Program-made: the position numbers and the translations under genes
Part shown: piece after piece, positions 11,401 through 56,483 of the stretch
Layout: each line of letters starts with the position of its first letter
Numbering within the stretch: position 1 is the first letter of the stretch
Notes under the pieces: generated by a model
The model's database searches: none
The model's input: the letters and a program-made list of their open reading frames with translations, nothing else
Told to the model about the DNA's origin: nothing
Assembly: GCA_965228475.1 (NCBI GenBank)
Contig: OZ245817.1
Span: forward strand, 384,001 to 448,000
DNA: 64,000 bases
From: Myxococcota bacterium
GTDB taxonomy: Bacteria > Myxococcota_A > UBA9160 > JAFDDA01
Direction of reading: 5' to 3'

Positions 11401-14400
11401 GCGGCGTGACGCGCATCGTCGACCCGAACGGCAACACGCTGACGATCGAGCCGGACGGCCTGCTTCATTCGACCGGCCTCGAGATCCTCTTCGTGCGGGA
11501 TGCCGAGGGTCGCATCGCGCGAATCGAGGACCCCGAGGGACAGTCCCTCCTCTACTCGTACGACGCAGATGGAAATCTCGATGCCGCCGTCGATCGGTCG
11601 GGCAACGAAACACGCTTCACCTACGAGGCGCCGGGCCGGCTCTCGGAGATCCTCGATCCGCTCGGGCGCCCGTACGTTCGCAGCGAGTACGATGCCGACG
11701 GTCGACTGGTTGCAACGGTAGACGGAAACGGGAACCGCACGGAGTTCCAGCACGATCTCGCGGATCGGCGTGAGGTCCAGATCGACCGTCTCGGCAACGT
11801 CACCGTGCAGGAGTACGACCTGCGCGGGAACGTCGTGACGAGCACCGACCCGCTCGGACAGGTAACGACGACGACGTACGATGCAGACGACAATCGGACG
11901 TCCCGGACGGACCCGGAGGGGCGAGTCTCCCTTTGGAGCTACGATGCAGCCGGGGACGTGGTCTCCTGGACCGACTTCGACGGGAACACCACGCTCTCGA
12001 CCTACGACTCCGCCGGAAGGCTTCTAGCCCAGGTCGACCCCGAGGGAGAGACGACGCAGTACGTCTACGACGCCTCGGGAAACCTGACCGAGATCCTCGA
12101 CCCCGACGGAGGCGTCGCGCGGTTCGCCTACGACGACGCGGGCAACCCCGAGAGCGAGACCGACCCGCTCGGGAACGTTCGCACCTATACATACGATGAG
12201 CGCGGCAACCGGATGACCGAGACCGATCCGCTCGGGAACGTCCGCTCCTTCACCTGGGACGCGACCGGCAACATGCTCTCGGAGAGCGCCATCCGTACGC
12301 AGGGGGACGGCTCGGTTGAAACAGAGACGGTACGCTTTGCCTACGACGCGGACGGCAGGATCGTGCGCCGGACCGACGCCAGCGGTGCGGTTTCCACGCG
12401 CGAGTACGACGGGCTCGGCCGCGTGGTGCGTACGGAAGACGCCAACGGGAACGTCGTCCGCTTCTCGTACGACGGGATCGGGAACCTCGCCGAAGTCTCG
12501 TATCCCGATGGCTCGACGGCCCTGCGCGATCACGACGCCGAGGGGCGACTCGTCCGGTCCGTCGACCGGGATGGACGCGAGACCCGCTTCGAGTACGACG
12601 CGCTCGGGCGGCAGACGGAGACCCTTCACCCCGACGGCACCCGGACGACGCGGGCCTACGACGGAGCGGACCGCCTCGCCGCGCGCACCGACGAGCGGGG
12701 GAACGTGACCACCTTCGCGTACGGACAGAATCAGGTAAGCCGGACCGATCCTCTGGGCCACGTCTGGATCGAGGATCGGGACTCGGCGGGTCGCCTCGAG
12801 CGCCAGGTGGATCCCCTTGGGCGCGAGACCCGCTTCGAGCACGACGGCCGTGGCAACCTCGTGCGGACGGTTTTCGCAGACGGCACCGAGCGCCGAAGCG
12901 TGCATGACGCGGCGGGTCGGGTGATCGAAGAGATCGACGAGGCGGGTTTGGTGACCCGATTCGCCTACGACGGTCGAGGTCAGCTCGCGGCGGTCACGGA
13001 CGCGCTCGGGAACGTGACGCGCTACGGCTACGACGAGCGGGGCAACCAGGTCTCGCGGACCGATGCGCTCGGCCGGGTGACGCGGATGGAGTACGACGCC
13101 GAGGGCCGCCTCGTCCGGCGAACCCTGCCGCTCGGTGAGTCGGAGCTCTTGACCTACGATCTCGTCGGGAACCGGACCTCCCAGACGGATTTCCGCGGTG
13201 AGACGACCACCTTCGAGTACGATGCCGATCGCCGCGAGGTCGCGCGCCGCTTCACCGACGGCTCGAGCATCGAGTCCTCCTGGTCGCCTGCCGGACTCCG
13301 TCTGACGGCTGGAGGCGACGCCTACCTCTACGATGCGCGCAGTCGACTCACCAGCGAAATCAAGGCCGACGGCTCGGTCCTCGCCTACGGCTACGATGCC
13401 GCAGGCAACCGCACCGAGGTTTCGATCGGCGCGGAGACCACGACCTACCTCTACGATGCGGCGAATCGGCTCGCCTCGGTCACCGACTCGGAGCTCGGCA
13501 CCACGAGCTACGTCCGCGACGCCGTCGGCAATCGCGTCGCGGTGGTGTACCCGAACGGGACGATGGCGACGTTCTCCCATGACGCAAGGGACCGGGTCGA
13601 ACAGGTTCGCCACGAGGGGCCGACCAGCCTCCTTCAGTCATTCGTCTACGACATCGGTCCCACCGGCCGGCGCCTGGGGGTCACGGAGGCGCCATCCGGG
13701 CGCCGCGTCGACTACGTCTACGACGACCTACACCGCTTGGTGGAGGAGCGGATCGACGAGGGAGGGGGCGTTCGGACCCTCGCCTATGCGTACGATGCGG
13801 TCGGCAACCGCGTGTCACGGGTCGACTCGCTCGAGGGCGCGACCGCCTACGTCTACGACGCCAACGACCGGTTGCTCGAAGAGCAGGGCCCCCTCGGGAC
13901 GATCTTCCACGCGTACGATGCCAACGGAAGCCTCGTCTCGGTTGACGACGGGCTGGGTCTGGACGAGTACGGGTACGACGCCGAAGGCCGTCTCGTCGCC
14001 GCTTCGCTGGACGATGGGAGCGATCTCGTCGCAGTCGCGTTCGCGTACGACGCGGACGGCCTGCGCACGTCGGCGACCGTCGACGGCGTCGAGACGCGGT
14101 ACCTGGTCGACAAGAACCGCGCCTACGGGCAGGTGATCTCGGAGGTGACGGACGGCGGGACCCGGCGATACGTCTACGGGGAAGCCCGGCTCGCCATGGA
14201 CTCGGACGAGGGGGAGCGCTTCTTCCACCACGACGCCCAGCGCTCCACGCGGCTCCTCACCGATGGTACCGGCGCCGCGAGCGACACCTACGACTACGAT
14301 GCCTTTGGCGTCGCCCTCTCGGAGAGTGGAAACAGTGCCAATCCCTATCGATACGCAGGCGAGCCGCTCGATGCGGCCACGGGCCTCTACTACCTCCGGG

Positions 14401-14945
14401 CCCGCTACTACCAGCCAGGCGTCGGACGCTTCACGGCGCGAGACCCATGGCGTGGCGACGTCTTCCAGCCGCTGACGCTCCATCCGTACGTGTACGTGCA
14501 GAACGACCCGATGAATCGCCTCGACCCTTCGGGAGCGATCGGCATCCTGTCCACCATCGGGAACGCGCTGAACTCGGCCTTCGTCCGATCGATCGGTTTC
14601 CTCTCTGCCGCCGGAACGCTCCTGACCCGGGGCCTCGACAGATCCCGATCCCTGCGCTTCAACACGAGCATCAATCTGCCGAAGATCTTCAACGCAGTGC
14701 AGAACAGGGGTGCCGCGGCAGGGTACCGCCGGGCGACCCAGCTCCTGAACGAGGCGATCAAGCCGAGCTTCCGCCGGGCTCAATGTTTCGCTCTGCGAAA
14801 CGCGCTCGCCGTGGACCTCGCAGCCCGGGTTCTGAACGTCGAGGAGTCGGGCACCCTGTTCGTTCCGGACCCGAGGGACCTCCGCATCCTGAGGGTCAAC
14901 GTTCTCGAGCCGTTGCGAGATACCCTCTGTCAGGGGATCGAGTGA
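5496..14945 (+). CDS. Giant Rhs/YD-repeat lipoprotein (FN3-like, cadherin-like/He_PIG, PKD, propeller-like regions, DUF6531-like, YD shell, Rhs core, 136-aa C-terminal tail)
   Basis: 3149 aa; lipobox LVGVSC; GMTVDPVSGRIDWTP-type Ig repeats; IDWGDGS PKD motifs; RAYDSR..GDFGLGW; many YDxxGR/N repeats; NPYRYAGE..D..TGLYYLRARYY and PYVYVQNDPMNRLDPSG. Start is GTG 5496 or ATG 5499. Confidence 0.93.
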   Translation: MMLRQVQQRRSPWQGPALAVLAAMLVGVSCQPAPGDLTVGTPECKSKPGSVVVLWKAPAGAASYRVLRGPADGSAPPAPLAEAVIHGPKPAYVDESAPVGVEQAYGVVALGADGSAGAPSPYCVAAAKDPEEALRPYFVTEPVLTALVGQAYRYDADAEHPDPAARLTYSLFISPEDMVIDPETGVVAWTPGPEDVGAHPVKILVEDEAGRSAKQFYTLVVSDGGPPTNLPPEIVSDPVGSAVAGEAYVYLVDAEDPDGDVLAFSLEVAPVGMTVDPVSGRIDWTPTDAQVGTASVRVRATDPGGLFDAQDFGIMVASPPNRAPVVQALLSDAARPAQRFQTFFGEDVNRTEDPATPTVDDPVRPAALPASQAARDRFLRELATGVAVGTFEDLSPGPTPNLLEIGEESVALLGPSALIVDRPTGTKAGRYPISGRRFLEGETRGFEFTVRFEAPVGAFGFFATDVADEASISGQLVLDLLDADGGVRSVEVPHAPPPEIGSNSGSALFFGVISTDRPITEITFRNSEDVVDAIGFDDLVIARPDQVISGLLEGESVALAPATFTDAEPEQTHVANVSWGGVPDPGAVLIESAGAGTVASRRSFPDDADTSVEVCVTDSEGATGCDSAPVEVQNLPPRIECSLEGFRLLGILGDGTLVENDPLTGEQTVLAETGLPSWGGLDWHPQRGVLYGIPEQSTNPQLARLDPLTGEAEIIGPITLDGVQVGLAEGIAFDPHSGGLLAAVGIDLPPRDFTSELLVSLDPDTGEATLVAPFGETSVLTSSQRPPGEGDADDIEFIGAQLMLADVSGQPPLVAGLVRADHRTGETEIVFEGEPNIATLAYSETTQQLFAAQALPEPALYRIDPASGAATLIQAGTVPGVLAVVPPRSVPVTIDFDSLPGMFNSPGDLVPEPSRLGDAFLSTLGVSFRSDADYVAVSEHAPFPTVSPPNVIGGVTASGELSYGTPIEISFFDPANPTIQRVTDFVTIRGEQAPIVGSTATMEAFDVFGASLGSVTAADSVDGLTLHLNVPGIHSVRLTQDSPGFGFDGTIGFDDLSFTIDPGCSTGGLYAIVGPPQPSLEEPAEGPRRLVQIDLDSGRAREIGDLTGDESMGPDSLTYDAVRGALFASFRDPAALVRIDPITGTSLEVGSFPVSTGESATAVCGLDVNPRDGRLYAIFSAEPSQNPCDRIGTVDPETSEITPLATLFQDDPVGDHDERVDADAIEWVDGVLYAVDAHADGDNATGRTLAYRIDPETGFSELIGEFGEAGDFLFLFGLAYAEPLGTLFGASSVDERIVSLDLEGFQFEERFRPRERTFDIAFAVPPPFRGSTSVVEGEAASLTLRFSDPGVLDTHEGVIDWGDGSVDSPRAISDDGTGFVGGSHVYVQDGTYDVEVCVRDDDGGEGCTTVSVQVFNASPEIAPIPDAALDEGGLLEIEADFTDPGREDVHVARIDWGDGSPEDAFLVTQGVEGGIVSASHVYVERGEYDARLCIDDGSDLGCRSFVVSVNGAPAIVSSPPVSTVPGAPYAYAVAAEDDPSDVLAFALDEAPAGMTIDPVTGLVLWTPVVSQLGDHDVSVRATDSRGLSDVQSYTVAVAPDVTPPGVTVILDTPRIDPGGEAVLTVTAEDDGAPPDVSVTVNGVPIPLDDDGRATIPGTESGPIVIIVVVTDGAGNETTETTVLAVTDPDDDTPPVAQIDAPADLAEVTFIEDLIGTATDENLFRYQVGLARGTDAPFELLEEGFAPVVSDVLATLDATLLENGLYRVRLVAEDVNGATAVAERAVRIAGDAKVGRYRLTFLDLHVPVSGVPVRIERAYDSRDGKRGDFGLGWRLELRRGSFDHNRLPGRGWDIRAGGGFLGLPCQVVVEDQSHLTEVRLSDSEFYAFRPVLSEPFSIAGGCVAEASYEFVDGSTRGAALEILDGATVFQASGSADVTRFDDPTGETYEPRRVRLRTRDGRVVDLDADAGGVTRIVDPNGNTLTIEPDGLLHSTGLEILFVRDAEGRIARIEDPEGQSLLYSYDADGNLDAAVDRSGNETRFTYEAPGRLSEILDPLGRPYVRSEYDADGRLVATVDGNGNRTEFQHDLADRREVQIDRLGNVTVQEYDLRGNVVTSTDPLGQVTTTTYDADDNRTSRTDPEGRVSLWSYDAAGDVVSWTDFDGNTTLSTYDSAGRLLAQVDPEGETTQYVYDASGNLTEILDPDGGVARFAYDDAGNPESETDPLGNVRTYTYDERGNRMTETDPLGNVRSFTWDATGNMLSESAIRTQGDGSVETETVRFAYDADGRIVRRTDASGAVSTREYDGLGRVVRTEDANGNVVRFSYDGIGNLAEVSYPDGSTALRDHDAEGRLVRSVDRDGRETRFEYDALGRQTETLHPDGTRTTRAYDGADRLAARTDERGNVTTFAYGQNQVSRTDPLGHVWIEDRDSAGRLERQVDPLGRETRFEHDGRGNLVRTVFADGTERRSVHDAAGRVIEEIDEAGLVTRFAYDGRGQLAAVTDALGNVTRYGYDERGNQVSRTDALGRVTRMEYDAEGRLVRRTLPLGESELLTYDLVGNRTSQTDFRGETTTFEYDADRREVARRFTDGSSIESSWSPAGLRLTAGGDAYLYDARSRLTSEIKADGSVLAYGYDAAGNRTEVSIGAETTTYLYDAANRLASVTDSELGTTSYVRDAVGNRVAVVYPNGTMATFSHDARDRVEQVRHEGPTSLLQSFVYDIGPTGRRLGVTEAPSGRRVDYVYDDLHRLVEERIDEGGGVRTLAYAYDAVGNRVSRVDSLEGATAYVYDANDRLLEEQGPLGTIFHAYDANGSLVSVDDGLGLDEYGYDAEGRLVAASLDDGSDLVAVAFAYDADGLRTSATVDGVETRYLVDKNRAYGQVISEVTDGGTRRYVYGEARLAMDSDEGERFFHHDAQRSTRLLTDGTGAASDTYDYDAFGVALSESGNSANPYRYAGEPLDAATGLYYLRARYYQPGVGRFTARDPWRGDVFQPLTLHPYVYVQNDPMNRLDPSGAIGILSTIGNALNSAFVRSIGFLSAAGTLLTRGLDRSRSLRFNTSINLPKIFNAVQNRGAAAGYRRATQLLNEAIKPSFRRAQCFALRNALAVDLAARVLNVEESGTLFVPDPRDLRILRVNVLEPLRDTLCQGIE

Positions 14946-29288: not shown

Positions 29289-32200
29289 ATGCCGGCCTGC
29301 GTCACCTGCGAGTTCGAGAACCGCGAGACGGCAAAGTTCTGCGGAGGGTGCGGCCAGTCCCTCATGACGCCCCGCGTCTGCATCGCGTGCGGGCAGGAAA
29401 ACGCCAGCGGTCAGCGTTTTTGCGACGAGTGCGGAGCGGCTTTGGATGCGCCGCAATCGCCGGCGCCCGCCGCCGCCGCCGCGGGTGAGCCCGAGATGCT
29501 GGCGGGCGGTCGCTACGAACTCCTCCGATTCCTGGGAGAGGGGGCGAAGAAGCGGGTCCATCTGGCCCGCGACACCCGTCTGGATCGCGAGGTCGCGATC
29601 GCATTCATCAAGAGCGAAGGCCTCGATCTGGTTCGCGTCCGCCGTGAAGCCGAGTCGATGGGGCGCCTCGGCGATCATCCCCACATCGTCACCGTGCACG
29701 ACGTCGCCGAGGAAGGCGGACGGGTGTATCTCGTCTGTCAGTACATGGCGGGGGGCGACCTCGAGCGGCGGCTCGACGAAGCGGAGGGGCACCGGCTCCC
29801 GGTCGAGGAAGCGCTCTCGGTGACCGAGCAACTATGCGCCGCGCTCGAGCACGCACACGGACACGGCATCGTTCACCGTGATTTGAAACCGGAGAACATC
29901 TGGCTCTCGAAGAACGGCACCGTTCAGCTCGGCGACTTCGGCCTGGCCGTTGCACTCGATCGGACGCGCGTCACCCAGGAAGGCTCGATGGTCGGGACTG
30001 CCGCGTACATGCCGCCCGAGCAGGCCGTCGGTGGCGACGTGACGGCGAGTTCCGATCTCTATTCGCTAGGCGCGGTGCTCTACGAGATGCTCGTCGGGCG
30101 GCCGCCCTTCGTCGGCGACGACATGGTGGCGGTGATCAGCCAGCAGTTGAATACGCGGCCGGTCGCGCCTTCGTGGCACAACCCCGACGTGCGCCCCGAA
30201 CTCGAAGCCCTGGTCCTCGAGCTGCTCGAGAAGACGCCCGGCTCCCGGCCGCCCGATGCGGCGACGGTCCGGGACCGGATCCAGGCGGTCCGCGATGCTC
30301 CCGAGATTCCCCAGGCGGCTCGTCCGGCCCCGGCGCCCGGCCGAAGCGCACCCCAAGCCTTCGTCGGGCGTACCCTCGAACTCGACCGCCTGAACCGAGC
30401 GGTCGACGAGGCGCTCGGTGGGCACGGCTCCCTCGTCATGCTGGCCGGCGAGCCGGGCATCGGCAAGACGCGCCTCGCCCAGCGTGCCGGCGAGTACGGC
30501 GGCCTGCGGGGGGCGCAGATGCTGCTCGGACAGTGTCACGAAACGCAGGGTGGCGTTCCGTACCTCCCATTCATCGAAGCGATCCGGCAACACGTGCAGG
30601 TCCGCGCGGACGAAGACCTGCGCGACCAACTCGGGAGCGTCGGGCCTGCGGTGGCGCGGGTCGTCTCCGAGGTGACGACTCGCCTGGAGATCGAGCCCGC
30701 GCCGGCGGGCGACCCCGAATCCGATCGCCAGAAGATCTTCGACGGTATCGCGACCTTCCTCGTGAACGTCTCCAAGGCCGACCCGGTGATCCTGGTGCTC
30801 GACGATCTCCACTGGGCGGACCGCCCGACCCTGATGCTGCTTCAGCACCTGGCCCGGCGCCTCGCCGGGAGTCGCGTGTTGGTGATCGGAACCTATCGGG
30901 ACATGGAACTCGACCGGCGTCACCCGCTCTCGGAGGCACTCGGGAGCCTGCGCCGCGACCCGGGCTTCGAGCGCATCCTGATGCGCGGGCTGACCGCGGA
31001 GGACGTCTTCGCGCTCTTCCAGGCGCAAGCGCAGGGCGCCCGGATCGGTGACGCGGAACAGGCCGCGCAGCTCGCGGCGGCCGTCCACCGCGAGACCGAG
31101 GGCAACCCGTTCTTCATCGGGTCGGTGCTTCAGCATCTCATCGAGAGTGGCGCCGTCTTCGAGCGCGACGGGAAGTGGACCGCCGAGGTCAGCATCGACC
31201 GGATGGGAATTCCCGAGGGCGTGCGCGAGGCGGTCGGCCGCCGCCTGTCCGCACTCTCCGATCCGTGCGGCCAGGCGCTCTCCGATGCGGCGGTGCTCGG
31301 CCGCACGTTCGCCTTCGAAGCGCTTCGCCAGATGTCCGGCATGGATGACGATGCCCTGCTCGACGCGATCGACGAGGCCATCGAGAAGCATCTCGTCGAA
31401 GAGTACGAGCGCGGAGGCGCCGCCCACTATCGCTTCGTTCACGCGTTGGTTCGACAGACCCTGTACGACGAGCTCTCGCTCCCGCGTAAACAGCGAGCGC
31501 ATCTCCGCGCCGGGGAGGCGCTCGAGGCCGCCTACGCGAACAAGATCGACTCCAACGTCACCGAGATCGCGATGCACTATCGAACGGCCGGCGCTGCGGC
31601 GGATTCGGGCAAGGTGCGCGACTACGCCGTCCGCGCAGGGCGCGCAGCGTCGCGCGCCGTGGCCTGGGAGGAAGCGATCACCCATTGGCAGTCGGCTCTC
31701 GACGCCTGGGGAGAAGAAGACCCGGCCGGTCGGGCGGCGCTCCTCGAGCGGATCGCCGAGGCCTACTACACCTCCGGCCTCGACCACGCCGCAGGAATCG
31801 CGGCCTGTGAGGAAGCCCTGCGAATCCAGAGGGAACTGGGGGACGAGATCGGCGAGGCGCGGATCCACGCGCGGATCGGCCGTGCGCTGGGAGGGCTGCC
31901 CGCAGACCTCGCGAACATTCCCAGGGCCATCGAGCACTGCACCCGCGGCCTGGAGATCTTCGAACGGCGGGGCGAGCTGATCCCGATGGCGGTGACGCTG
32001 ATCGCCAGAGCAACGGCATTGGGCATGGGAGGGCGGCTCGAGGAAGCGAGCGCCGACCTCGAGCGAACGCAGGGGATCCTCGACGAGGTGGGGGTCGAGG
32101 CCTTGCAAGCGGGTGCCGACCTGATCGCGAATCTCGTGGCGCAGCCGGCCGGGCACTTTGCGTTGGCCGATGCGAAGGCGCGGAGCGCATTGGAGATCGC

Positions 32201-33659
32201 GGAACGCCAGGGACTGCGCTTCGTGACCACGCTCGCCAGCGCGTGCCAGGCAGTCTACTGGCGATTCCTCGATCCAGGCCCGAGCCTCGTCATCTTCGAG
32301 AAGGCCCTGGCAGAAGTAGGCACCGCGCAGGCGCCTTTCCAACGCGAGATCCTGACGAACACCCGCGCTTCGGCGTTGGTCCTGGCCGGGCGCCTGGAGG
32401 AGGCGCAAGAGGCTCTCGAGCAGGCCCCGACCCGCTGGATGAACACGGACTTCGTGCAGTTCTTCTTCGACTGGGATCTCGCGGCGGCGACCTCCGCCGC
32501 CAAGTTCGAGGACATGGAGGCCCGCGGGGTGCACGTGCTCGCCACCTCGCACTACGACATTCGCGCCCGGATCCGCGACGTGAAGGGCGACGACGAGGGC
32601 GCACGCGCGGCATACCTCGAGGTCATCGAGTACGCCGAGCCGCTCGGGTTCGTCGAGCAGCTCGACCGGCCCCGGATGGCGCTCGCCGTCCTCGAAGCCC
32701 GCTGCGGAAACCTCGAAGCCGCGGAGGAACACCTGGCGCGGGCCCGCGAACTGATCGAGGGGCCCGAGGACTATCGTGGCATGGTCGGCGTCTTCGAGCG
32801 GGCCCAGGGTGCCGTGGCCGCTGCCCGCGGCGATTGGAACGTCGCGCGCGGCGCCTTCGAGCGTTCGATCGAGATCCTGGACCGCTTCGGCGTTCCCTTC
32901 GAAGAGGCGGAGACGAACTTCGTCTGGGGCAATGTGCTCGCGAGGCGCGGCGATCGCCGCGGAGCGCTCGAACGGCTCGACCGTGCGCTCGAGATCTACC
33001 GCCGAATCGGCGCCGCGTCACAGTGGCTCGAGCGGGCCCTCGCCGCGAAGATGCGCGCGCAAGGCAGTCAGTCCACCGATGCCAAGGCAACCATCGCCGT
33101 CGTGGCGGCCTCGGTCGAGGCCAAGCGGCCGAGTATGTCGATCGCGGCCGGGTCCGACGGCACGGTCACCCTCATGTTCAGCGACATGCACGACTACACG
33201 GGCATGATGGAGCGGCTGGGCGATCGCGATGCGCTTCGCGTGGTCGAGGACCACAACCGCATCGTCCGGACCCAGTGTGATGCGCACGGAGGCTTCGAGG
33301 TGGAGCTGCGCGGCGACGGCTTCCTCGTCGCTTTTCCGACGCCGGCGGCGGGTGTCCGCTGCGCCATCGCGCTACATCGGGCCTTCGATGCCTACAACCG
33401 GGGCAACCCGGCCCAGCCCATCCGCATCCGGATCGGGCTCCATGCGGGCGAGGCGATCCGCGACGAGGACAAGTTCTTCGGCAAGACCGTGATTCACGCC
33501 TTCCGGATCGCGGACATGGCGGCCCGCGACGAGATCCTCGTCTCCGGCGAAGTCCAGTCGCAGGTGGCGCAGGAGGGCTTCCGCTTCAGTCGCGAGCGCG
33601 ACGTGGCGTTGAAAGGCTTCTCGGGCAAGCACTCCATCGCCTGCATCGAGTGGGAGTAG
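29289..33659 (+). CDS. Double Zn-ribbon / Ser-Thr kinase / STAND AAA ATPase / TPR / class III nucleotide cyclase
   Basis: 4x Cxx[44 protein letters not shown]; helical repeats; LMFSD...GDGF...RIGLHAGE...FGKTV. Confidence 0.93.
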
Positions 33660-33668
33660 GGCGCAGTC

Positions 33669-34775
33669 TCATCCGCTCTGCAGCAGGCGGTAGCAGAGCA
33701 TCTTCGAAACGTTGAGGAGGAGCTGCGCCGCGACCTCCGAATCGCTGGCGATGGCCTTGCGCAGCGTTCCCTCGCTCAGGCTGAGGATGCGCCCCTCGGT
33801 GGCCGCGTCGACGTCGGCGGAGCGTGGCCGTTCGAGGAGGAAGGCCATCTCACCGAAGACATCGCCCGGTGAGAATACGCGCACGAGCTCGCCATTCACC
33901 CGCACCTCGAAAGTGCCTTCAAGCACCACGAACATGTTGCGGGCCACGCCGCCCTGTTTCAGGACGCGATCGCCGGGAGCGCAGCGGATGATGTTGCTCT
34001 TGCCCAGAACGCGCTCCGCTTCCTCCTCCGAGAGCCCGTCGAGGGCCGAGAGTCGATTCTCGGCCAGCTCGTCCAGCGAATCCTGGACTTCGTCGAGGTA
34101 GCGATCCGGGTTGCTCAGGCGCTGGCTCACGACGCCGCTCGCGTCGATCAAGCGCTCCACGCAGGTGGGGATACGGGCATCGTCACCATGATCTTTCGTG
34201 ACGGCTGCCATTGGTGAGCCGATCCGCCGCAGATACTCGACGTCCTCGACGACCGTGACGATCGGGATCAGATAGCCCGATTCGGCGCTGTTGATGTGCT
34301 TCTTTGCGAACGTGCGGCTGCCCTGGCTCATGTACAGGCCGAGCAGGTGCGGCTCGCAGGCGCCGAAGATGAGTTGGATCCGCTCGCCCTGGATGAAGCT
34401 GGATGACTCCTGGCCGAGGCTGAAGAAGACGTCGCTACCGCGCAGGGCGGGTGTCACCATGCCGCGCTCGCCGACGGCGAGGGTTTCGGGCGGCAGCTCC
34501 TCCAGGAAGGGCGCGAGCTGGTAGTGGTCGATCAGTCGCTCGGTGAAGGGCGCGTCGCCGCCCCAGCTCATGCGTTGAGTTGCCACGACCGCTCCATCCT
34601 GCGCCGCGTACCAGATCCGGGCCGTCTCGTCTTCGGGCTCGACGAGACGCTGATTCTCGTGGTCGGCCGCCTCGCCGTAGCGCCCCATCTCCTCGACGTA
34701 GACGTCGTATCGGAAGCGGTAGACCGCCTCCTTCTCCTCCTCGGTCGTGGCCAGATGGAATCCGTCTCGAAGCAT
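33669..34775 (-). CDS. FeeM/LuxI-like GNAT acyltransferase fused to a C-terminal cNMP-binding domain
   Basis: ATTEEEKEAVYRFRYDVYVEEMG is typical of N-acyl amino acid/AHL synthase N-termini; MFVVLEG, PGDVFGEMAFLLERPRSADV phosphate-binding cassette. Confidence 0.82.
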   Translation of the reverse strand: MLRDGFHLATTEEEKEAVYRFRYDVYVEEMGRYGEAADHENQRLVEPEDETARIWYAAQDGAVVATQRMSWGGDAPFTERLIDHYQLAPFLEELPPETLAVGERGMVTPALRGSDVFFSLGQESSSFIQGERIQLIFGACEPHLLGLYMSQGSRTFAKKHINSAESGYLIPIVTVVEDVEYLRRIGSPMAAVTKDHGDDARIPTCVERLIDASGVVSQRLSNPDRYLDEVQDSLDELAENRLSALDGLSEEEAERVLGKSNIIRCAPGDRVLKQGGVARNMFVVLEGTFEVRVNGELVRVFSPGDVFGEMAFLLERPRSADVDAATEGRILSLSEGTLRKAIASDSEVAAQLLLNVSKMLCYRLLQSG

Positions 34776-38257: not shown

Positions 38258-39298
38258 ATGCGGCGGACTCTCGCCTGGGCAGTGCTGGTCTTCGCGATCG
38301 TCGCCCTCGTCGGTGGCTTCCTCGCCTTTCGCGGCGTCGGCGGGATGGACGGTCTCCAGCGCGCGGCCGCCCGGCGCGCCCTCGAACCGCGGCACGATGC
38401 GCTCTTCGAAGACGGGCGCCTCCACGTCTTCACCCTCGGCACCGGCTCTCCGCAGCTCGGGGGCGGCCGCATGCCCGTCGCGAACGCGGTGATCGCGGGC
38501 GGGGAGTTCCTGCTCATCGACGTCGGCGAGGGCGCGAGCCGTACGATGGGCGAGCTGGGCCTGCCGCTCGAGCGGATCACCGGCGCCTTCATCACCCACT
38601 GGCACTCGGACCACTTCGCCGGGCTCGGCCAGGTCTTGAACCAATCCTGGAACGCGGACCGCCCGCACGAGGTCGAGGTCCACGGCCCGCCTGGCATCGA
38701 GCGTGTCATGGACGGCCTCGAGCGGATGTACCGCGACGACATCGGCTACCGCTCGGCCGGGAAGGTCGAGGACAACGACCCGGCGCTGGCGCTCGGAAGA
38801 CCCATCGCCGTCTCGATTCCGACCGGCGAGGCTTCGGCGATCGTCTTCGATCGCGGCGGCGTCCGGGTCCGCGCCTTCCACGTCGACCATGGGCACATCG
38901 AGCCGGCGTACGGCTACCGCGTCGAGTACAACGGCCGCTCGGCCGTCTTCAGCGGCGACACCGTCGCGTCCCCGCTCGTGGCGGAAGCGGCGCGCGGCGC
39001 CGACCTGTTGGTGCACGAAGCGGTGAACACGCGCCTCATGCGCAACGCGATCGCCGTGCTCCGCGAGATGGGCAACGAGGTGAACGCCCGCCGGGCGGAG
39101 GGCGTCATCGGCTACCACGCCGATACGATCGGGGTCGCCAAGGTGGCCGCGGAGGCGGGCGTCGGCCGCCTGGTCCTGGCCCATCTGATCCCCGCGATCC
39201 CGAACCCCCTGTTCCCGCGGCTCTTCGTGGCGGGAATGGCCGAGCACTACGACGGCCCGATCGTCGTGGCGGCCGACGGTCAGCACTTCGCCCTCTGA
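38258..39298 (+). CDS. MBL-fold hydrolase, RNase Z/AtsA arylsulfatase-like, membrane anchored
   Basis: LGTGSP, IDVGEG, THWHSDH, VDH, FSGDT, LLVHEA, YHA, LVLAHLIP. Confidence 0.9.
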   Translation: MRRTLAWAVLVFAIVALVGGFLAFRGVGGMDGLQRAAARRALEPRHDALFEDGRLHVFTLGTGSPQLGGGRMPVANAVIAGGEFLLIDVGEGASRTMGELGLPLERITGAFITHWHSDHFAGLGQVLNQSWNADRPHEVEVHGPPGIERVMDGLERMYRDDIGYRSAGKVEDNDPALALGRPIAVSIPTGEASAIVFDRGGVRVRAFHVDHGHIEPAYGYRVEYNGRSAVFSGDTVASPLVAEAARGADLLVHEAVNTRLMRNAIAVLREMGNEVNARRAEGVIGYHADTIGVAKVAAEAGVGRLVLAHLIPAIPNPLFPRLFVAGMAEHYDGPIVVAADGQHFAL

Positions 39299-43373: not shown

Positions 43374-46300
43374 TCAGGCGCGCCCGCCGCCGGGTGCGAT
43401 GCGGGCCAGGCTGCCGTGCTGCTCCTTCAGGCCTTGCACGCGCCCGAGCACGTGGGGCATGCCGACCTCGCTGGCGAGGCGGTGCGCTTCGGCGAGGTGC
43501 CCTGCGGCCTCGCGGCGTGACTCCGGATCGCCGAAGCGCAGCAGCAGCTCGCCGAGGCCGGCCTCGACGTGCGCGAGGCTCGGGCGTGCACCGAGCTGCT
43601 CTTCGCGCTCGCGTGCGAACTCGAAGTGCCGCAGCCCCGGCTCGAATCGCTCGAGCACGATGGCGAGCTCGCCCAGGTAGCGCGAAGCGCAGCTCACGTA
43701 CGAGGTCGCCTGCCCGACCACCACGCTCTGGCGGGCGTAGGGGATGAGCGCGCGGTAGAGCACGTCCGCGGCGTCGCGGTCGCGCAGGCCGACGGCGACG
43801 TCGGAGAGCACGACGAGGGAGATCAGCCAGTTGATGTCCCGGCGGACGGCGGCGAGGTCGTTGCGAAGGCTCGCCTCGAGCCGGGCCCGCGCGGCGTCGG
43901 GTTCGCCCTTCAAGACGTGGATGTGGGCGAGGCCGTGACGCCAGGGCGATTCCGGATGACGCAGGGAGGCTTCGCGCACGAGCTCCTCGATCTCCGTCAC
44001 ACGGCCCTGGTCGCGTCGGAGGCCCCAGAGCTGGCAGAGGTACCAGATGGGCGCGAGCACGCCGCTCGTCTCGAGGCCGAGCGCGTAGCCACGCTCGATG
44101 GCCCGGTCGGCGCGGTCGAGCTCGCCGCGCAGGTGGAGGACCATCGCCTCGTGCATGGCGGCCCACCACTGGTGCTGCGGCTGGCGCAGCAGGTCGGCCT
44201 CGTGCCGATAGGTCTCGATCTCGACGAAGAGCCGGCCTGCGTCGCCCGCTTCCGTGAGGTCGTCGATCAGGGAGCCGCGGGCCGCGAGGCGCTCGAGGGG
44301 GTCGCCGAGCCGGTCGGATTCGATGAGGAGCTCTTCCACCAGGACGAGCCGCTCGTCCAGGTGGTCGGCGTCGAACACGGAGAAGTGTCGCCTGCGCAGG
44401 GCGAAGACGAGATCGGCGCGGTCGCCTTGCTCGCGGGCGAGCCGCACGGCTTCGAGGCTCAGCTCCCGAGCGCGTGCGCGGGTGCTGGCGAAGTAGAGCG
44501 CCTCCGAGAGCCGCGCCAGGAGGCGGATGCGCAAGGACGGCGAGCGGGCGCCGAGCGCTTCCAGGGCTTCCTCGAGCATGCCGATGCGCTTCGGGTCCGC
44601 ATCGAGGGCCTCTCCCTCGGCGCAGTAGCCGAGCGCCGCGCGAGCGAGGCCCTCGGCGTCGCCCAGGCTGCGGGCGAGGTCACGCGCGCGGAGCAGGATG
44701 GGCTTCGCATCTCCGTAGTCGGCGTAGCCGTTCAGCGCCTCGCCGAGATCGAGTAGCAGGGCGAGGCGCTGCGGCGGTTCGAGGGAAGCGCGGGGGCTCA
44801 CTTCGAGAGCACGGCGGTAGTGGGCCACGGCGTCCTCGAAGGCGAGAGCGTCCGAGGCGCGGGCGCCGGCCTGGATCGCGTAGTGGACCGCCTTCACCGC
44901 GTCCTCGGCCGCGGGGGCCAGGGCGTAGTGGCCGGCCAGCTCGGCGAAGCGCGCTTCTTCGACGGGGTCGACCGTTTCGATGGCGCGCGCCGTGCGCGCG
45001 TGGAGCGCCATGCGCTCGGCGGGGTCGAGCTGCTCGTAGAGCACCTCGGGGATCAAGCCGTGGCAGAACTCCCAGGCCGGCGTGTGATCCGCGAGCTGCG
45101 CAATGACGCCTGCCGCGACGGCCGGTGCCAGCCGTTCGGGCAACGCCTCGGGCGGCAACGACGTCACGTGGGCGAGCACCGCGAGTTCGAACTGCAGCCC
45201 CGTGGCCGATGCGGCGGTGAGGAGGCGGAGCGTTTCTTCGGGCAACGCTTCGAGGTGAAGGCCGATGGCCTCCCGGGTGCTCGCCGGCAACGCACTCGCC
45301 GGGCCGAAGGCCGCGCCGCTCGCCACGAGCTGGGTCAGGAAGAACGGGTTGCCGCCGCTTCGGCGGTGCAGCGCGTCGCTGAGCTCGGGCCCGGCGTGGC
45401 GCCCCGTCCGGAGCTCGAGGTATCGGCCGACGTCGGAGGGAGCGAGCCCTTCGAGCGTCTGGATGCGGACGCTCGGGCAGCGGCCGAGCGCGCCCAGCAC
45501 GCGCGCGCGCTGCGGGTCGGCGCGCAGCTCGGCCTCGCGGCTCGTCGCGACGATCCAGACGCGCGCCTCCTCGATCTCGCGCGCGAGGAAGTCGAGCAGC
45601 AGGAGGGAAGGCAGGTCCGCGAGATGGAGATCGTCGAGCAGGATCGCGAGCGGCTGCCGGGCGGCTGCGGCGCGCAGGGCGTGGGCCAGGGCGTCGAAGA
45701 GGAGGAAGCGTTCGCCCTCCGGGCTGGCCGCGCTGGCCGGCGTCGCGCCGCTCGGCTCCGGGAGGAGCGAGGCGAGCTCGGGCATGGCATCGGCGACGAG
45801 GCTCGCGCGGTCGGCGGGTACCTCGAGCCGTTCGAGTGCGCCGAGGGCCCGCGTCCAGGGCCAGTAGGCCGGGGCCATGCCTTCCCCCGAGCAGCGCCCC
45901 GCGAGGGTGCGGGCGCCCCGTGCGGGGAGGCGCTTCAGCAGTTCCTGGGCGGTCCGCGTCTTCCCGATGCCGGCCTCGCCGGTGAGGATCAGGACCCGCC
46001 CGGTGCCGGCCTGGGCGGAGTCGGCGTCCGCCAGGGCAGCGCGCACCACGGCGTCGCGCCCCACGAACGGGTCCGCCACGGTCTCCCGCGGCTCCGCTTC
46101 GCCGAAGCGCGCTTCGGCGACGAATCGGTAGCCGCGCCCGCGCACCGTCTGCACCACGGCCTGGGCGGTGCCGTCGTCGCCCACCGCCTTGCGGACTTGT
46201 TTGACGGCCTGGGTCAGCGCGGACTCGCTCACCACCGAGCCCGACCACACCGCCTGGAAGAGCTCGCCCTTCTCGACCACGCGGTCCGCGTTCTCGATCA

Positions 46301-46412
46301 GAAAGCGCAGCAGGTCCATGGCGCGGCGCTGGAGCGCCACGGCCTCACCGCCCCGGCGAAGCTCCATGGCCTCGAGGTCGAACTCGACGTCGGCGAAGCG
46401 GACGACGCTCAC
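43374..46412 (-). CDS. OmpR/CadC-type wHTH - STAND AAA ATPase - TPR transcriptional regulator
   Basis: RFADVEFD..ELRRGG...VQTVRGRGYRF; FVGRD, GEAGIGKT, LDDLHLAD, SGGNPFFL; helical repeat C-terminus. Confidence 0.92.
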   Translation of the reverse strand: MSVVRFADVEFDLEAMELRRGGEAVALQRRAMDLLRFLIENADRVVEKGELFQAVWSGSVVSESALTQAVKQVRKAVGDDGTAQAVVQTVRGRGYRFVAEARFGEAEPRETVADPFVGRDAVVRAALADADSAQAGTGRVLILTGEAGIGKTRTAQELLKRLPARGARTLAGRCSGEGMAPAYWPWTRALGALERLEVPADRASLVADAMPELASLLPEPSGATPASAASPEGERFLLFDALAHALRAAAARQPLAILLDDLHLADLPSLLLLDFLAREIEEARVWIVATSREAELRADPQRARVLGALGRCPSVRIQTLEGLAPSDVGRYLELRTGRHAGPELSDALHRRSGGNPFFLTQLVASGAAFGPASALPASTREAIGLHLEALPEETLRLLTAASATGLQFELAVLAHVTSLPPEALPERLAPAVAAGVIAQLADHTPAWEFCHGLIPEVLYEQLDPAERMALHARTARAIETVDPVEEARFAELAGHYALAPAAEDAVKAVHYAIQAGARASDALAFEDAVAHYRRALEVSPRASLEPPQRLALLLDLGEALNGYADYGDAKPILLRARDLARSLGDAEGLARAALGYCAEGEALDADPKRIGMLEEALEALGARSPSLRIRLLARLSEALYFASTRARARELSLEAVRLAREQGDRADLVFALRRRHFSVFDADHLDERLVLVEELLIESDRLGDPLERLAARGSLIDDLTEAGDAGRLFVEIETYRHEADLLRQPQHQWWAAMHEAMVLHLRGELDRADRAIERGYALGLETSGVLAPIWYLCQLWGLRRDQGRVTEIEELVREASLRHPESPWRHGLAHIHVLKGEPDAARARLEASLRNDLAAVRRDINWLISLVVLSDVAVGLRDRDAADVLYRALIPYARQSVVVGQATSYVSCASRYLGELAIVLERFEPGLRHFEFAREREEQLGARPSLAHVEAGLGELLLRFGDPESRREAAGHLAEAHRLASEVGMPHVLGRVQGLKEQHGSLARIAPGGGRA

Positions 46413-46461
46413 GTGGCGGGGCTCCCATCGGAACAGGGTACGACGGATCGGTGCCGGTGCG

Positions 46462-48135
46462 TCAGTCTTCGATGCACCAGACCTGCGAGTTGGCGTTGCA
46501 GCTCGTGTGGTTCCGGTCGAAGATCGGGAAGCTCGGGTCCTCGAACCATCGAGGATTGAACGATGCTCTGCTCCCGTAGTCAGTGGAGGCGTCGCTCGAC
46601 CAGTTCACGCAATTGGACCGGCCCGGTTGGTCGGGCAGGTTCCAGGGTTGGAAGCCGGTGCGGATCCAACCGGCCGCGGTCGCAGGAGGCCCGCTTCCGG
46701 AGTCGGGCACCTGGAACCCCCTCGAGAGGTCGTACTCGAGGTTGGACGGGTACGTGAGCTCGTAGAGGGAGGCCATGTGGAACCCCTCGTCGCAAGCCGT
46801 CAGGGCGAGATCGGCTCCCGCGACCGTATCCGCGGTCAGGTAGTAGCGCTTGCGCAGCACGGGCCGGCAGCGGCCATCGTCGCAGCGGTTGCCGCCGCCC
46901 TCGGTGATCCCGGCGGTGAAGGTCTGGTTGCCGACGAAGCTCACCTGGTTGTCGCGCGTGACGACGCGCTCCGCGCCCGCGCGCCGCGTGATGCCGTCGC
47001 CGCCGACCTCCCAGATCTGCACGCCCGCGACGACGGAGTCCGAGTCGACGGTGATCGCGTTGGTGCTGACGTCGGAGACGCGCACGTCTTCCACGCGCCC
47101 GAACTCGGCCAGGTCGATCCCGTTGCCGACGATGCCGTGCACGCCCCCGTTGCGGACGGTCGTGCCCTCGGCCTGGCTGATGATCGCGACACCGAAGCCG
47201 ATCTGATTGCAGGAGACGTTGCCGCCCACGGCCGTGCAGTCGTTCAGACCCCGCACGTTGTAGCCCCCGAGGTCGATCGTCGTGAACGGGGCGTTCACCG
47301 TGATGGCGATCGGGTCCGCGAGGCCGAGGATCAGGTTGCTCGTGAGCTGGTAGCTCCCGGAGGAGAGGGCGGAGATCTCGACGGGGAAGCCCGGTGCGTC
47401 GCCCGGGAAGCAGCCGGCGATCGCGCAGGCCTGGTCGATGCGCCGCGGCCCGGGGATCTCGGGCTCGGGGACGGGCGGAACCGTCGTGCAGACCGCCCCG
47501 TCGCAGAGGTTGCCGTCCGCCTGGGTCACCGCTCCGTCGATGGGCTCGTCGCCCGCCTGGCTCACGTGGTTGCCCGCGGCGAGGACGCGCACGGCCGACG
47601 CGGCGCCCGTGATGCCGTCGCCGCCCACCTCCCAGACGCGGCTGTTGCGGACGGTCGAGTCCGAGCCCACCTGGATGCCGTCGCCGGAGGCGTCCGTCAC
47701 GCGCACGGACTCGACGTTCGCGTGGTCGATCAGCGCGATCCCGTGGCTGCCCACACCGTGCACGCCGCCGTTGCGCACCGTGGTGCCGGTCGCGCGGCTC
47801 ACGATCCCGATCGTCGCGTTCTGCACGTCACAGCGGACCGCGCCGGCGGTTCCGCTGCAGTCGTTCAGGCCGAGGATGTTGAACCCGTTCAGGTCGATCG
47901 TCACGAAGGGTGCGTCGACCTGGATGGCGCCCGGGTCGCCGGTGCCGAGCACGAGGTTGCTCGTGAGCCGGTAGCTCCCCGAGGAGAGGGCGCCGATCTC
48001 GACCGGGAAGCCCGGCCGGTCGCTCGGGAAGCAGCCCACGGCGACGCAGGACTGGTGGATCTCGCGGACGCCGTCGACGGCCCGGGCCGGTTGAGGGAGG
48101 AAGAGCAGCAGGCAGGCGAGAGCGATCCAGGGCAT
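46462..48135 (-). CDS. Secreted protein: two Cys-capped beta-helix modules plus a C-terminal C-type-lectin-fold-like domain
   Basis: Signal peptide; two GCFPxDxPGFPVEI..SGSYxLTSNL units; C-terminal ALTACDEGFHMASLYE...GWIRTG...NCVNWSS...CNANSQVWCIED. Confidence 0.78.
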   Translation of the reverse strand: MPWIALACLLLFLPQPARAVDGVREIHQSCVAVGCFPSDRPGFPVEIGALSSGSYRLTSNLVLGTGDPGAIQVDAPFVTIDLNGFNILGLNDCSGTAGAVRCDVQNATIGIVSRATGTTVRNGGVHGVGSHGIALIDHANVESVRVTDASGDGIQVGSDSTVRNSRVWEVGGDGITGAASAVRVLAAGNHVSQAGDEPIDGAVTQADGNLCDGAVCTTVPPVPEPEIPGPRRIDQACAIAGCFPGDAPGFPVEISALSSGSYQLTSNLILGLADPIAITVNAPFTTIDLGGYNVRGLNDCTAVGGNVSCNQIGFGVAIISQAEGTTVRNGGVHGIVGNGIDLAEFGRVEDVRVSDVSTNAITVDSDSVVAGVQIWEVGGDGITRRAGAERVVTRDNQVSFVGNQTFTAGITEGGGNRCDDGRCRPVLRKRYYLTADTVAGADLALTACDEGFHMASLYELTYPSNLEYDLSRGFQVPDSGSGPPATAAGWIRTGFQPWNLPDQPGRSNCVNWSSDASTDYGSRASFNPRWFEDPSFPIFDRNHTSCNANSQVWCIED

Positions 48136-55817: not shown

Positions 55818-56483
55818 TCAGCGCTGGCGGCACCGTCGGACGGCGAGGCCGGCGACACAGCTCGCGACGAGCAGCGCCGTGCCGGGCTCCGGAACGGGGG
55901 TCCCGCCGGAGCCGTAGATCGTGCCGCCGGGGCCGGAGAGGACGACGAACAGCTGCGAGGCGAGGTCGATCGTCTCGAACAGGAACTGATCCCAGGTGTC
56001 TCCGCCGAGCAGCTCGCCATCGGCAGCGGTGTAGAAGTTCAGCACGTCGTCGCCCGGGTCGAGCACGTTCGAGATGTCGCCGAAGATGTCCTGCCCGCTG
56101 TTGCCGTCGAAGTCGATCGACTCGGTGTCCCAGTTCGAGCCATCCAGGTTCGACGCGAAGTAGCACCAGCTGCTGTCGGAGTCGGAGCCGCAGCCGAAGC
56201 TGTCCCCGAAGCTCTCGATCCAGGCGATGCTGAAGGAGTTCGAGATGCCGAAGGCGATCAGCCCGTAGTCGGCGCTGTTGTTGGTGACGGTGTAGCGGCC
56301 GCCGCCGGGGATCGCGGTTTCGGTGAAGTAGACGGCTTCGTTCGCACCGTCGAGCACGGCGGGTGCGGAAACCGTGTTGCCGGCCGCGTCCTGGAAGACG
56401 AGTACGGCGTGGGCGGGAGCGTTCGCGAGGAGCAGCAGGGTGGCGGCGAGCAGGGCGGTCGCCGTCTTCGGCAGGCGGAGCAT
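55818..56483 (-). CDS. PEP-CTERM sorting-domain protein
   Basis: Signal peptide (..PAHA); VPEPGTALLVASCVAGLAVRRCRQR. Confidence 0.92.
   Translation of the reverse strand: MLRLPKTATALLAATLLLLANAPAHAVLVFQDAAGNTVSAPAVLDGANEAVYFTETAIPGGGRYTVTNNSADYGLIAFGISNSFSIAWIESFGDSFGCGSDSDSSWCYFASNLDGSNWDTESIDFDGNSGQDIFGDISNVLDPGDDVLNFYTAADGELLGGDTWDQFLFETIDLASQLFVVLSGPGGTIYGSGGTPVPEPGTALLVASCVAGLAVRRCRQR

Follow-up and report, generated by a model that had tools for sequence, protein, structure and literature searches.

Recurrent pairing of a kinase-STAND-cyclase gene with a gene for a FeeM/LuxI-fold acyltransferase carrying a cyclic-nucleotide-binding domain

A cyclase that works with a linked enzyme regulated by a cyclic-nucleotide-binding domain (CNBD) is an already known logic, and the two genes described here very probably form an unstudied signalling switch built on it. 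Rv0998 (Mt-Pat, cAMP-regulated) is a fusion of a CNBD with a GNAT-superfamily acyltransferase, and its substrates are protein lysines. FeeM and the LuxI-type AHL synthases, none of which carries a CNBD, are acylators of small amines. In Xanthomonas campestris, the cyclase-TPR protein XC_0250 adjoins XC_0249, a CNBD-GGDEF protein. According to the available part of the report on this cGMP pathway, the same logic was shown there experimentally: the product of XC_0250 stimulates the XC_0249 enzyme, and the role is one of physiological signalling, not defence (PMC3770947). In Pycsar and Pucsar systems, a cyclase stands beside a CNBD-carrying effector. Pycsar cyclases are stand-alone and the effectors are TIR or transmembrane proteins, as stated in the accessible portion of a preprint (10.64898/2026.08.12.744502).

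The window analysed here is a 64,000-nucleotide stretch of contig OZ245817.1 from a Myxococcota bacterium. Gene A (29289..33659, + strand) was identified by ORF call and translation and encodes 1456 aa. Gene B (33669..34775, − strand) encodes 368 aa and converges on it, and by their coordinates the two stop codons are separated by 9 bp (33660..33668). This two-gene arrangement, first noticed in a preliminary description made from the sequence, was confirmed, and the domain calls made there held up for both proteins.

Gene A combines a Zn-ribbon, a Ser/Thr kinase, an AAA_16 STAND NTPase, a TPR region and a class III cyclase, all by Pfam and all on the + strand. The double zinc ribbon (aa 4-49, 29298..29435; PF12773 DZR) scored 35.2 bits (cut-off 27.3). 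The kinase domain (aa 76-321, 29514..30251; PF00069 Pkinase, 160 bits) has the HRD...N and DFG catalytic motifs of Hanks-type kinases, with H196, R197, D198, K200, N203, D216, F217 and G218 invariant among 11 orthologs. Likewise, the STAND-type NTPase (aa 358-533, 30360..30887; PF13191, 97.3 bits vs cut-off 32.6) has an intact Walker A (G387-T394, GEPGIGKT) and Walker B (D505, D506), both invariant in the same alignment. It is followed by a helical/TPR region (aa ~540-1280, 30906..33128), with TPR_12 at ~1173-1238 (53 bits) and lower conservation elsewhere among the 11 orthologs; this region is presumed to be the sensor arm. The C-terminal domain, a class III nucleotidyl cyclase (aa 1289-1448, 33153..33632; PF00211 Guanylate_cyc), scored 58.7 bits, above the curated cut-off of 21.9. 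Catalytic residues were thus kept in all three enzymatic modules of the 11-ortholog alignment.

Like XC_0250, gene A joins a class III cyclase to TPRs beside a CNBD-fused enzyme; the Zn-ribbon, the Ser/Thr kinase and the STAND NTPase are extra in gene A, and the effector enzyme is a GGDEF diguanylate cyclase in XC_0249 but a FeeM-fold acyltransferase in gene B. The best NCBIfam model for gene A was TIGR03903, the TOMM system kinase/cyclase fusion protein, which likewise has kinase, cyclase and AAA/TPR parts. Gene A was not assigned to it: the score was 295 bits against a cut-off of 705.75, and the match covered the NTPase part only (aa 357-807 vs model positions 482-921). The surroundings of gene A also showed no TOMM genes.

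Gene B begins with a Met codon at 34775 on the − strand, and a 368-aa protein of 100% identity is on record. Pfam, alignment and the predicted fold (model pLDDT 87) describe it as a putative FeeM/LuxI-fold N-acyltransferase with a C-terminal CNBD. In the model, the N-domain (aa 3-199, 34179..34769, − strand; VIA-align and Foldseek) has the predicted fold of a FeeM-like GNAT. Its top match among 48,161 chains was FeeM 2g0b (VIA-align Z 17.1, rmsd 2.8, 173/188 aligned, model residues 3-192). AHL synthases followed at Z 13.6-15.4 (RpaI, LasI and TofI at 15.2-15.4), a range overlapping that of generic GNAT acetyltransferases (Z 12.6-15.1), and the best Foldseek match was BjaI (E 1e-9). The FeeM/LuxI-type fold proposed earlier was thereby recovered in the model. 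Sequence similarity to these enzymes is remote (9-18% identity), and an N-terminal R-x-R-x-x-V/I-aromatic-V-x-E motif aligns with the equivalent stretch of BjaI.

Taken alone, the window protein stayed just below the Acetyltransf_5 cut-off (22.1 vs 22.4 bits) and below that of FeeM (PF21926; 15.6 vs 27 bits). At the family level, all 40 aligned members matched both models at E<=0.1, with best values of 4.7e-10 for FeeM and 1.2e-8 for Acetyltransf_5, and the family has invariant residues of its own, C140-E141-P142-H143. No match to the autoinducer-synthase Pfam models was found at E<=0.1 among the 40 members, and the N-domain profile reached BjaI with only E 0.13. By sequence, gene B was therefore not classed as a LuxI-type AHL synthase; the resemblance is one of fold.

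The CNBD (aa 240-368, 33672..34058, − strand) was matched by PF00027 at E 6e-17 (aa 264-344, 61.8 vs 27.5 bits; motif FGEMAFLLERPRSA). Its putative phosphate-binding cassette, G304-D-V-F-G308-E309...R318-S319, holds the Gly, Glu and Arg expected by sequence: among 40 homologs G304, G308 and R318 were invariant and E309 was at least 90% conserved. The domain thus appears intact, as had been proposed.

From fold and family, we infer that gene B would acylate a small amine, with acyl-ACP or acyl-CoA as the donor. The acceptor is most likely an amino acid, and the product a lipid or signal of the N-acyl amino acid type. The alternative that gene B acylates protein lysines or N-termini, as Rv0998 does, with the nucleotide still supplied by gene A, seems unlikely to us. 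Rv0998 already provides an example of a CNBD fused to a GNAT, and its CNBD (4ava) aligned with that of the model at Z 12.9; the generic GNAT acetyltransferases aligned to the N-domain fit this alternative as well. So do neighbours that handle CoA thioesters, namely an acetyl-CoA hydrolase/transferase in L013, L018, L029, L034 and L046 and an enoyl-CoA hydratase in L048, with homologous ORFs in L050-L052 by clustering. However, the best folds are those of small-amine acylators, FeeM and then the AHL synthases, even if the scores of the latter overlap those of the GNATs. The GNAT family also differs: FeeM and Acetyltransf_5 were matched by every family member, whereas Acetyltransf_1 gave weak matches in 8/40, and the NCBIfam Pat model scored 23.1 bits against a cut-off of 460, over a part of the CNBD only (aa 258-328). 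The domain order is reversed too, as had been noted before, with the CNBD N-terminal in 4ava (residues 8-142) and C-terminal in gene B. An assignment as an Rv0998-type lysine acetyltransferase was rejected on the Pat score and the domain order.

The preliminary description had made the functional link between the two genes depend on neighbourhood conservation. Co-location did recur. A forward survey covered 80 loci with a gene B homolog. In 27 of them, a cyclase gene of the kinase-STAND-cyclase, cyclase-STAND or another type lay within ~0.5 kb; in 5 of these 27 the contig stops short of the cyclase domain. One more locus had a cyclase at 0.9 kb, and nine more had a cyclase domain within 8 kb. 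Linked loci were spread over five or more distinct clades of the gene B tree, and co-location was seen in Myxococcota-type, Chloroflexota, Acidimicrobiia, Thermoleophilia and Binatia-type clades. The layout was convergent in the window and in L003, L008, L009, L021, L026, L040, L041 and L081; in L012, L015, L016, L019, L037-L039, L061, L078 and L080, the genes ran in the same direction, one directly downstream of the other, as in an operon. In the Thermoleophilia, the sensor architecture becomes cyclase-STAND-TPR. Convergent orientation had been held against the pair, a reservation that no longer applies because the linkage recurs across clades, co-directional layouts included.

For statistical control we used the 35 loci whose flanks both span 8 kb. 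A cyclase domain lay within 8 kb in 16 of them, against 2.4 expected from 543 PF00211 matches in 134.8 Mb of the same genomes (~seven-fold). The immediate neighbour was a cyclase gene in 12 of the 35, against ~0.3 expected (~forty-fold). These loci come from related genomes, so P values overstate their independence. The adjacency is far beyond chance.

The linkage is one-sided: among the matches listed, such a partner is missing from most kinase-STAND-cyclase relatives. A reverse survey kept 80 loci of gene A relatives from the matches listed; among these 80, gene B was present in 2 (L103, L107), and any CNBD ORF within 4 kb in one further locus (L168). On the gene B side, about half of the loci with adequate flanks have no nearby cyclase (in the gene B tree, 24/75 rows carry the label 'none' and have flanks of at least 3 kb on each side). 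These figures would suit an absence of any dedicated pairing, in which gene B reads the general cNMP pool, whichever of the genome's cyclases made it, and adjacency reflects shared regulation or history. The genome of the window carries a single gene B and, over its 5.0 Mb, 17 cyclase matches; genomes in the survey have from 2 to 41 cyclase matches. We consider this reading very unlikely given the enrichment, and since the linkage is kept when gene orientation or sensor architecture changes. Moreover, G004 (L021) and G005 (L023) have just 2 and 3 cyclase matches, yet in each genome one match adjoins gene B.

The pairing recurs across several phyla, and the two genes therefore very probably form a signalling switch. 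With moderate confidence, we regard them as a dedicated cyclic-nucleotide module controlling small-molecule N-acylation. Gene A would be a cytoplasmic sensor whose TPR arm and STAND NTPase answer a ligand by nucleotide-dependent oligomerisation. Class III cyclases require a dimer for catalysis, and oligomerisation would bring the C-terminal cyclase domains into such a dimer; both steps are suggested by the established behaviour of STAND proteins and of such cyclases. A second output or feedback could come from the kinase. Binding of the cNMP to the CNBD of gene B would then allosterically alter the activity of its N-acyltransferase, making acylation cNMP-dependent.

Defence, an option that had been raised alongside signalling, is disfavoured, as no defence genes were seen among the neighbours in the window and in the homolog loci. 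Here the STAND arm would sense a phage component, the cyclase would raise the cNMP, and gene B would be a toxic effector, for example by acylating an essential cellular amine. We consider such a Pycsar-kind role quite unlikely. The best PADLOC matches of the CNBD were Pycsar effector/cyclase models (PycTIR, E 4.7e-16), and gene B is patchily distributed within its own order (14/121 genomes, 7/60 genera). The preprint, in its accessible portion, also predicts an immune clade of STAND-fused cNMP cyclases; that portion does not mention a kinase, GNAT or acyltransferase (10.64898/2026.08.12.744502). But the PADLOC matches were confined to generic kinase and CNBD domains, those of gene A being all to the kinase domain among the matches listed (25 of 33), and no whole-system model was matched. 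Many gene B copies lack a nearby cyclase partner, and the flanking genes, in the window as in the loci, have metabolic or regulatory roles (P450, CoA transferase, sigma-70, TetR, oxidoreductases). Gene B is also highly conserved, with ~60% identity between the Myxococcota-type and Chloroflexota proteins, a slow evolution unlike that of arms-race effectors. The pair was not classed as Pycsar, as PADLOC matched gene B in the CNBD only and its effector domain is a GNAT.

Within the favoured module, the sequence of the cyclase bears on the identity of the messenger. The closest solved relative of the gene A cyclase is Ma1120, an active adenylyl cyclase (E 1.4e-34). Two metal-binding aspartates (D1299, D1343) and the transition-state R1406 are present in the window protein and invariant in 11 orthologs. 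The canonical transition-state Asn position is Ile in gene A; Ma1120 has Ala there and is still active (PMC4215837). The adenylyl cyclase Lys/Asp pair is absent from gene A, which has Glu and Lys at the substrate-specifying positions of Ma1120 K101 and D157. The same Glu/Lys pair was found in the partner cyclases of L003, L009, L021, L022, L081 and L100 (in L026 the Lys position alone is visible, as the contig stops inside the domain), while the gene B partner cyclases of other phyla have Lys/Asp, unlike the window clade. In an ungapped alignment with PKA/PKG CNBDs, the beta5 residue of the gene B CNBD is Arg299. A beta5 Arg is a mark of cGMP selectivity in PKG.

In the window clade, the specificity residues of the cyclase and the beta5 residue of the CNBD shift together, a covariation that also argues against gene B reading a general pool. 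Glu/Lys in place of Lys/Asp, together with the beta5 Arg, hints that this clade uses a messenger other than cAMP, with cGMP as the leading candidate. More speculatively, and in our view unlikely, the module could synthesise a diffusible N-acyl signal (an N-acyl amino acid or an AHL-like compound) under cGMP gating, in bacteria outside the Proteobacteria. If so, the messenger of the family would have changed from cAMP to cGMP on at least one occasion, through paired substitutions in the cyclase (Lys/Asp to Glu/Lys, and a Phe) and the receptor (beta5 Arg), and the STAND-kinase sensor would set the timing at which the cell emits a lipid-like signal. Compared with guanylyl cyclases, for which Glu is listed at the first position and Cys, Ser, Thr, His, Ala or Gly at the second (PMC4215837), gene A has the Glu, but its second residue, Lys, lies outside that set. 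It has Phe where the guanylyl cyclase Cya2 has Tyr. XC_0250 differs again: one of its substrate-specifying residues is Ala and its transition-state pair is Leu/Ala, where gene A has Glu/Lys and Ile/Arg, respectively.

Gene A and gene B very probably form a conserved two-gene second-messenger module. It would combine a STAND-type sensor (an AAA_16-type NTPase class) that has kinase and cyclase outputs with a putative FeeM/LuxI-fold acyltransferase gated by a cyclic-nucleotide-binding domain (CNBD). The two are proposed to communicate through a diffusible nucleotide and not by protein contact. Modules of this logic have precedents; what is new is the effector family, the architecture of the sensor and the possible switch of messenger.

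Gene A (29289-33659, + strand) is an ORF of 1456 aa in a window with a G+C content of ~70%. Pfam models placed a double zinc ribbon at aa 4-49, a Ser/Thr kinase at aa 76-321 (160 bits), an AAA_16 STAND-type NTPase at aa 358-533 (97 bits), TPR_12 at ~aa 1173-1238 and a class III cyclase domain at aa 1289-1448 (58.7 bits, cut-off 21.9). The top NCBIfam model was the TOMM kinase/cyclase fusion. Its score of 295 bits was below the cut-off of 705 and only the NTPase part was aligned, so gene A is a relative and not a member of that family. The kinase HRD...N and DFG motifs, Walker A and Walker B, and both metal-binding aspartates and the transition-state Arg of the cyclase were invariant in 11 gene A orthologs. 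Gene B (33669-34775, - strand) is an ORF of 368 aa, located 9 bp downstream of gene A on the opposite strand. Its cNMP-binding domain (Pfam, E 6e-17) carries the cassette FGEMAFLLERPRSA, and its N-terminal GNAT was slightly under the Pfam cut-offs for Acetyltransf_5 and FeeM. The preliminary description of the two genes, with their ORFs, domains, 9-bp gap, convergent orientation and cNMP cassette, was thus correct in every detail.

The gene B family comprised at least 1,199 proteins (E ≤ 0.001, 8,000 candidates scored). All of the best 120 of these were 361-412 aa long. The MAG labels of the relatives included Myxococcota, Chloroflexota, Binatia, Acidimicrobiia, Thermoleophilia, Alpha- and Gammaproteobacteria, and others. 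An alignment of 40 members, 43-86% identical to gene B of the window, showed that G304, G308 and R318 of the cassette were invariant and E309 was at least 90% conserved; all 40 members matched the FeeM, Acetyltransf_5 and cNMP_binding models. An AlphaFold2 model of gene B, built from this alignment (mean pLDDT 87, pTM 0.73), was compared with 48,161 representative PDB chains. The top match was FeeM, an N-acyl amino acid synthase (2g0b; Z 17.1, rmsd 2.8 Å, 173 of 188 residues), followed by the AHL synthases RpaI, LasI, TofI and MesI (Z 13.6-15.4); generic GNATs reached Z 12.6-15.1. The predicted fold therefore agrees with the FeeM/LuxI-like GNAT assignment made earlier. Foldseek ranked BjaI, a CoA-dependent AHL synthase, first (E 1e-9). 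A profile of the N-domain gave no significant match to PDB sequences, the best being again BjaI (E 0.13), and kinship with LuxI enzymes is only a hint at this level. Several automatically named ESM Atlas clusters have the same FeeM and CNBD architecture, so the fusion is already catalogued in databases. The non-subscription literature searched gave no account of a CNBD fusion with an N-acyl amino acid synthase, OlsB or an autoinducer synthase, nor of a CNBD-GNAT with a STAND cyclase.

A few irregular copies were seen. At L100, a locus from the window's order, gene B is damaged or shortened, the match ending at residue 256, ~180 bp short of a gene A homolog in convergent orientation; at L101, from the same order, it is broken into two pieces. 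A single Acidimicrobiia contig carries a second gene B paralog (L043:14027-15115, - strand) 5 kb from the first. In the predicted protein P0123 (653 aa), part of a STAND NTPase is continuous with a gene B copy without ~20 N-terminal residues. This protein was met once, on a contig of 5 kb, may be a real fusion or an assembly chimera, and was excluded from the evidence.

For linkage analysis, 80 loci with gene B homologs were scanned by tblastn and with HMMs that represented the kinase, STAND, TPR and cyclase regions of gene A. A kinase-STAND-cyclase, cyclase-STAND or shorter cyclase gene started or ended within ~0.5 kb of gene B at 27 of the 80 loci, in 5 of which the contig stops short of the cyclase domain. 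At L041 the distance was 0.9 kb. Nine further loci had a cyclase domain within 8 kb, and many of the remaining ones were short contigs. A control set was formed by the 35 loci flanked by 8 kb on either side, with the expectation taken from 543 PF00211 matches in 134.8 Mb of the same 35 genomes. A cyclase domain lay within 8 kb at 16 of them, versus 2.4 expected (Poisson-binomial P ~9e-11), and a cyclase gene was the immediate neighbour at 12, versus ~0.3 expected (P ~4e-17); the genomes are related, so both P values overstate independence.

Co-location in other genomes, one of the points on which the preliminary description had let its proposal stand or fall, was thus found, and in both orientations. 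A tree of 75 gene B proteins distributed the linked loci over at least five separate clades (Myxococcota-type, Chloroflexota, Acidimicrobiia, Thermoleophilia and Binatia-type). The genes are convergent in the window and at L003, L008, L009, L021, L026, L040 and L041, and co-directional, with gene A directly downstream, at L012, L015, L016, L019, L037-L039, L061, L078 and L080. The STAND protein beside gene B in Thermoleophilia has an N-terminal cyclase. Gene A also led to a Polyangiales contig (71% identity) that carries a convergent gene B 19 bp away. The functional tie is strongly evidenced, because linkage persists through these changes of orientation and architecture. All-against-all clustering of the flanking ORFs, a result blurred by shadow ORFs, revealed no widely shared neighbour except cyclase genes. 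The window neighbours of gene B (beta-helix protein, DUF3179, TetR, MBL) were not conserved beside it elsewhere, and with ten window proteins as tblastn queries, the 80 loci yielded only one DUF3179 and one TetR match.

The tie between the two genes is one-sided. Among 80 loci of gene A relatives kept from the matches listed, gene B was present only at L103 and L107, and another CNBD ORF within 4 kb only at L168. This fraction is a rough sample, its loci coming from an alignment-based search among the matches listed; a single-protein locus search with gene A gave 6 loci. Within the window's order, gene B is patchy, occurring in 14 of 121 genomes (11 of 78 of good quality) and in 7 of 60 genera. 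Gene A stood beside it in 4 of the 13 other gene B genomes (14 loci, 1.5 kb flanks fetched).

The closest solved relative of the gene A cyclase was Ma1120 from Mycobacterium avium (E 1.4e-34). In this enzyme, ATP is specified by K101 and D157, the usual Asn gives way to A164, A167 is the counterpart of a Tyr in the guanylyl cyclase Cya2, and the conserved Arg is R168; guanylyl cyclases have Glu where the Ma1120-type Lys stands (PMC4215837). The gene A residues aligned with K101, D157, A164, A167 and R168 are Glu, Lys, Ile, Phe and Arg. This set was kept in all Myxococcota-clade orthologs examined (L003, L009, L021, L022, L081 and L100; partially in L026). The kinase-STAND-cyclase and cyclase-STAND partners of Chloroflexota, Acidimicrobiia and Thermoleophilia have the Lys/Asp pair of adenylyl cyclases. 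Guanylyl cyclases are not known to have Lys at the second specificity position, as gene A does.

In the receptor, position 299 in strand beta5 of the CNBD was Arg in 13 of 16 window-clade members and in none of the 59 other rows. R299 aligned without gaps to a Thr of PKA RI-beta CNB-A. From its spacing, 20 residues before the residue after the cassette Arg, as T192 before A212, this Thr is taken to be the equivalent of RI-alpha T192; RI-alpha/RI-beta equivalence is otherwise assumed. With the changes T192R/A212T and G316R/A336T, PKA acquires the Arg and Thr that are cGMP-specific in PKG I (PMC4565163). The top PDB sequence matches of the gene B CNBD were Plasmodium cGMP-dependent kinases, which have Arg at the R299 position. 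The residue after Arg318 in the phosphate-binding cassette (Ser, Thr or Ala) did not separate gene B clades. Since the Glu/Lys set and Arg299 occur in the same clade, cyclase and receptor appear to shift jointly, in the direction expected for cGMP. This covariation, read from aligned residues, is a lead rather than a test, because it has two exceptions and is otherwise confined to one clade: L023 and L024 keep the beta5 Arg, yet adjoin short Lys/Asp cyclases. It is essentially one phylogenetic event.

The preliminary description had left room for the pair being an anti-phage defence device rather than part of physiological signalling. A 2026 preprint (10.64898/2026.08.12.744502) predicts STAND-fused cNMP cyclases to be immune; its text mentions no kinase, GNAT or acyltransferase. 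The PADLOC matches listed were all to generic domains, kinase (PD-T4-6 and others) or CNBD (PycTIR). Among systems established by experiment, the nearest in logic is Xanthomonas XC_0250/XC_0249, where the cyclase-TPR protein XC_0250 makes cGMP and the adjoining CNBD-GGDEF protein XC_0249 is cGMP-stimulated (PMC3770947). Defence is disfavoured, as gene B is strongly conserved across phyla, its neighbours at other loci are metabolic or regulatory, and many copies are without an adjoining cyclase. A further point against it is the absence of defence genes from the window, where the genes besides A and B include those for a giant RHS-repeat protein, hydrolases, P450s, TetR, oxidoreductases and a SARP-like regulator.

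To our knowledge, few bacterial enzymes are gated directly by cAMP or cGMP. Those met for comparison were a lysine acetyltransferase, a diguanylate cyclase and Pycsar effectors. Gene B stands for a further family, large and putatively cNMP-gated, of FeeM/LuxI-fold acyltransferases fused to a CNBD. This family occurs in many phyla, has no description in the literature searched and often keeps its own STAND-type sensor cyclase adjacent. If confirmed, the signalling module would tie second messengers to N-acyl lipid or signal synthesis. Its cAMP-type and putative cGMP-type versions would be a natural pair in which to study the co-evolution of cyclase and receptor specificity, and the module itself would be a physiological counter-example to STAND-fused cyclases as immune devices.

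Other cNMP-related genes and P450s were observed. A P450 fused to a C-terminal CNBD directly adjoins gene B homologs at three related loci (L031:2804-4645, L033:1301-3223 and L035:5762-7654, all - strand). At L033 and L035, a cyclase-STAND gene with Gln/Thr at the specificity positions follows just beyond it. Plain P450 genes lie beside or near gene B at L004, L014 and L024. The P450-CNBD and gene B neighbourhoods suggest a wider set of cNMP-gated enzymes, possibly of one pathway. In the window, a P450 (58198-59412), ~39% identical to the P450 part of these fusions, precedes a co-directional gene for a PAS-PAS-class III cyclase (56744-58180; together 56744-59412, - strand), the second cyclase of the window, 22 kb from gene A and gene B. 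Elsewhere in this genome (L087, G000:C1:3636000-3650000), a CHASE2-cyclase, a two-CNBD protein, a thiolase-like protein and a P450 are consecutive on one strand, another cyclase and CNBD neighbourhood with a P450.

The MBL-fold protein downstream of the TetR gene (38258-39298, + strand) matched the anti-Pycsar nuclease Apyc1 with 30 bits, versus a cut-off of 50. It was not conserved beside gene B elsewhere and is probably a generic MBL hydrolase. N-acyl amino acid synthases have been connected with PEP-CTERM/exosortase systems; a small protein with a PEP-CTERM motif is encoded at 55818-56525 (- strand), 21 kb from gene A and gene B. The RHS-repeat protein (5466-14945, + strand) has 3159 aa, with PKD and Ig-like domains. 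The SARP/AfsR-like regulator (43374-46604, - strand; Trans_reg_C, AAA_16 and TPR) has the same NTPase type as gene A.
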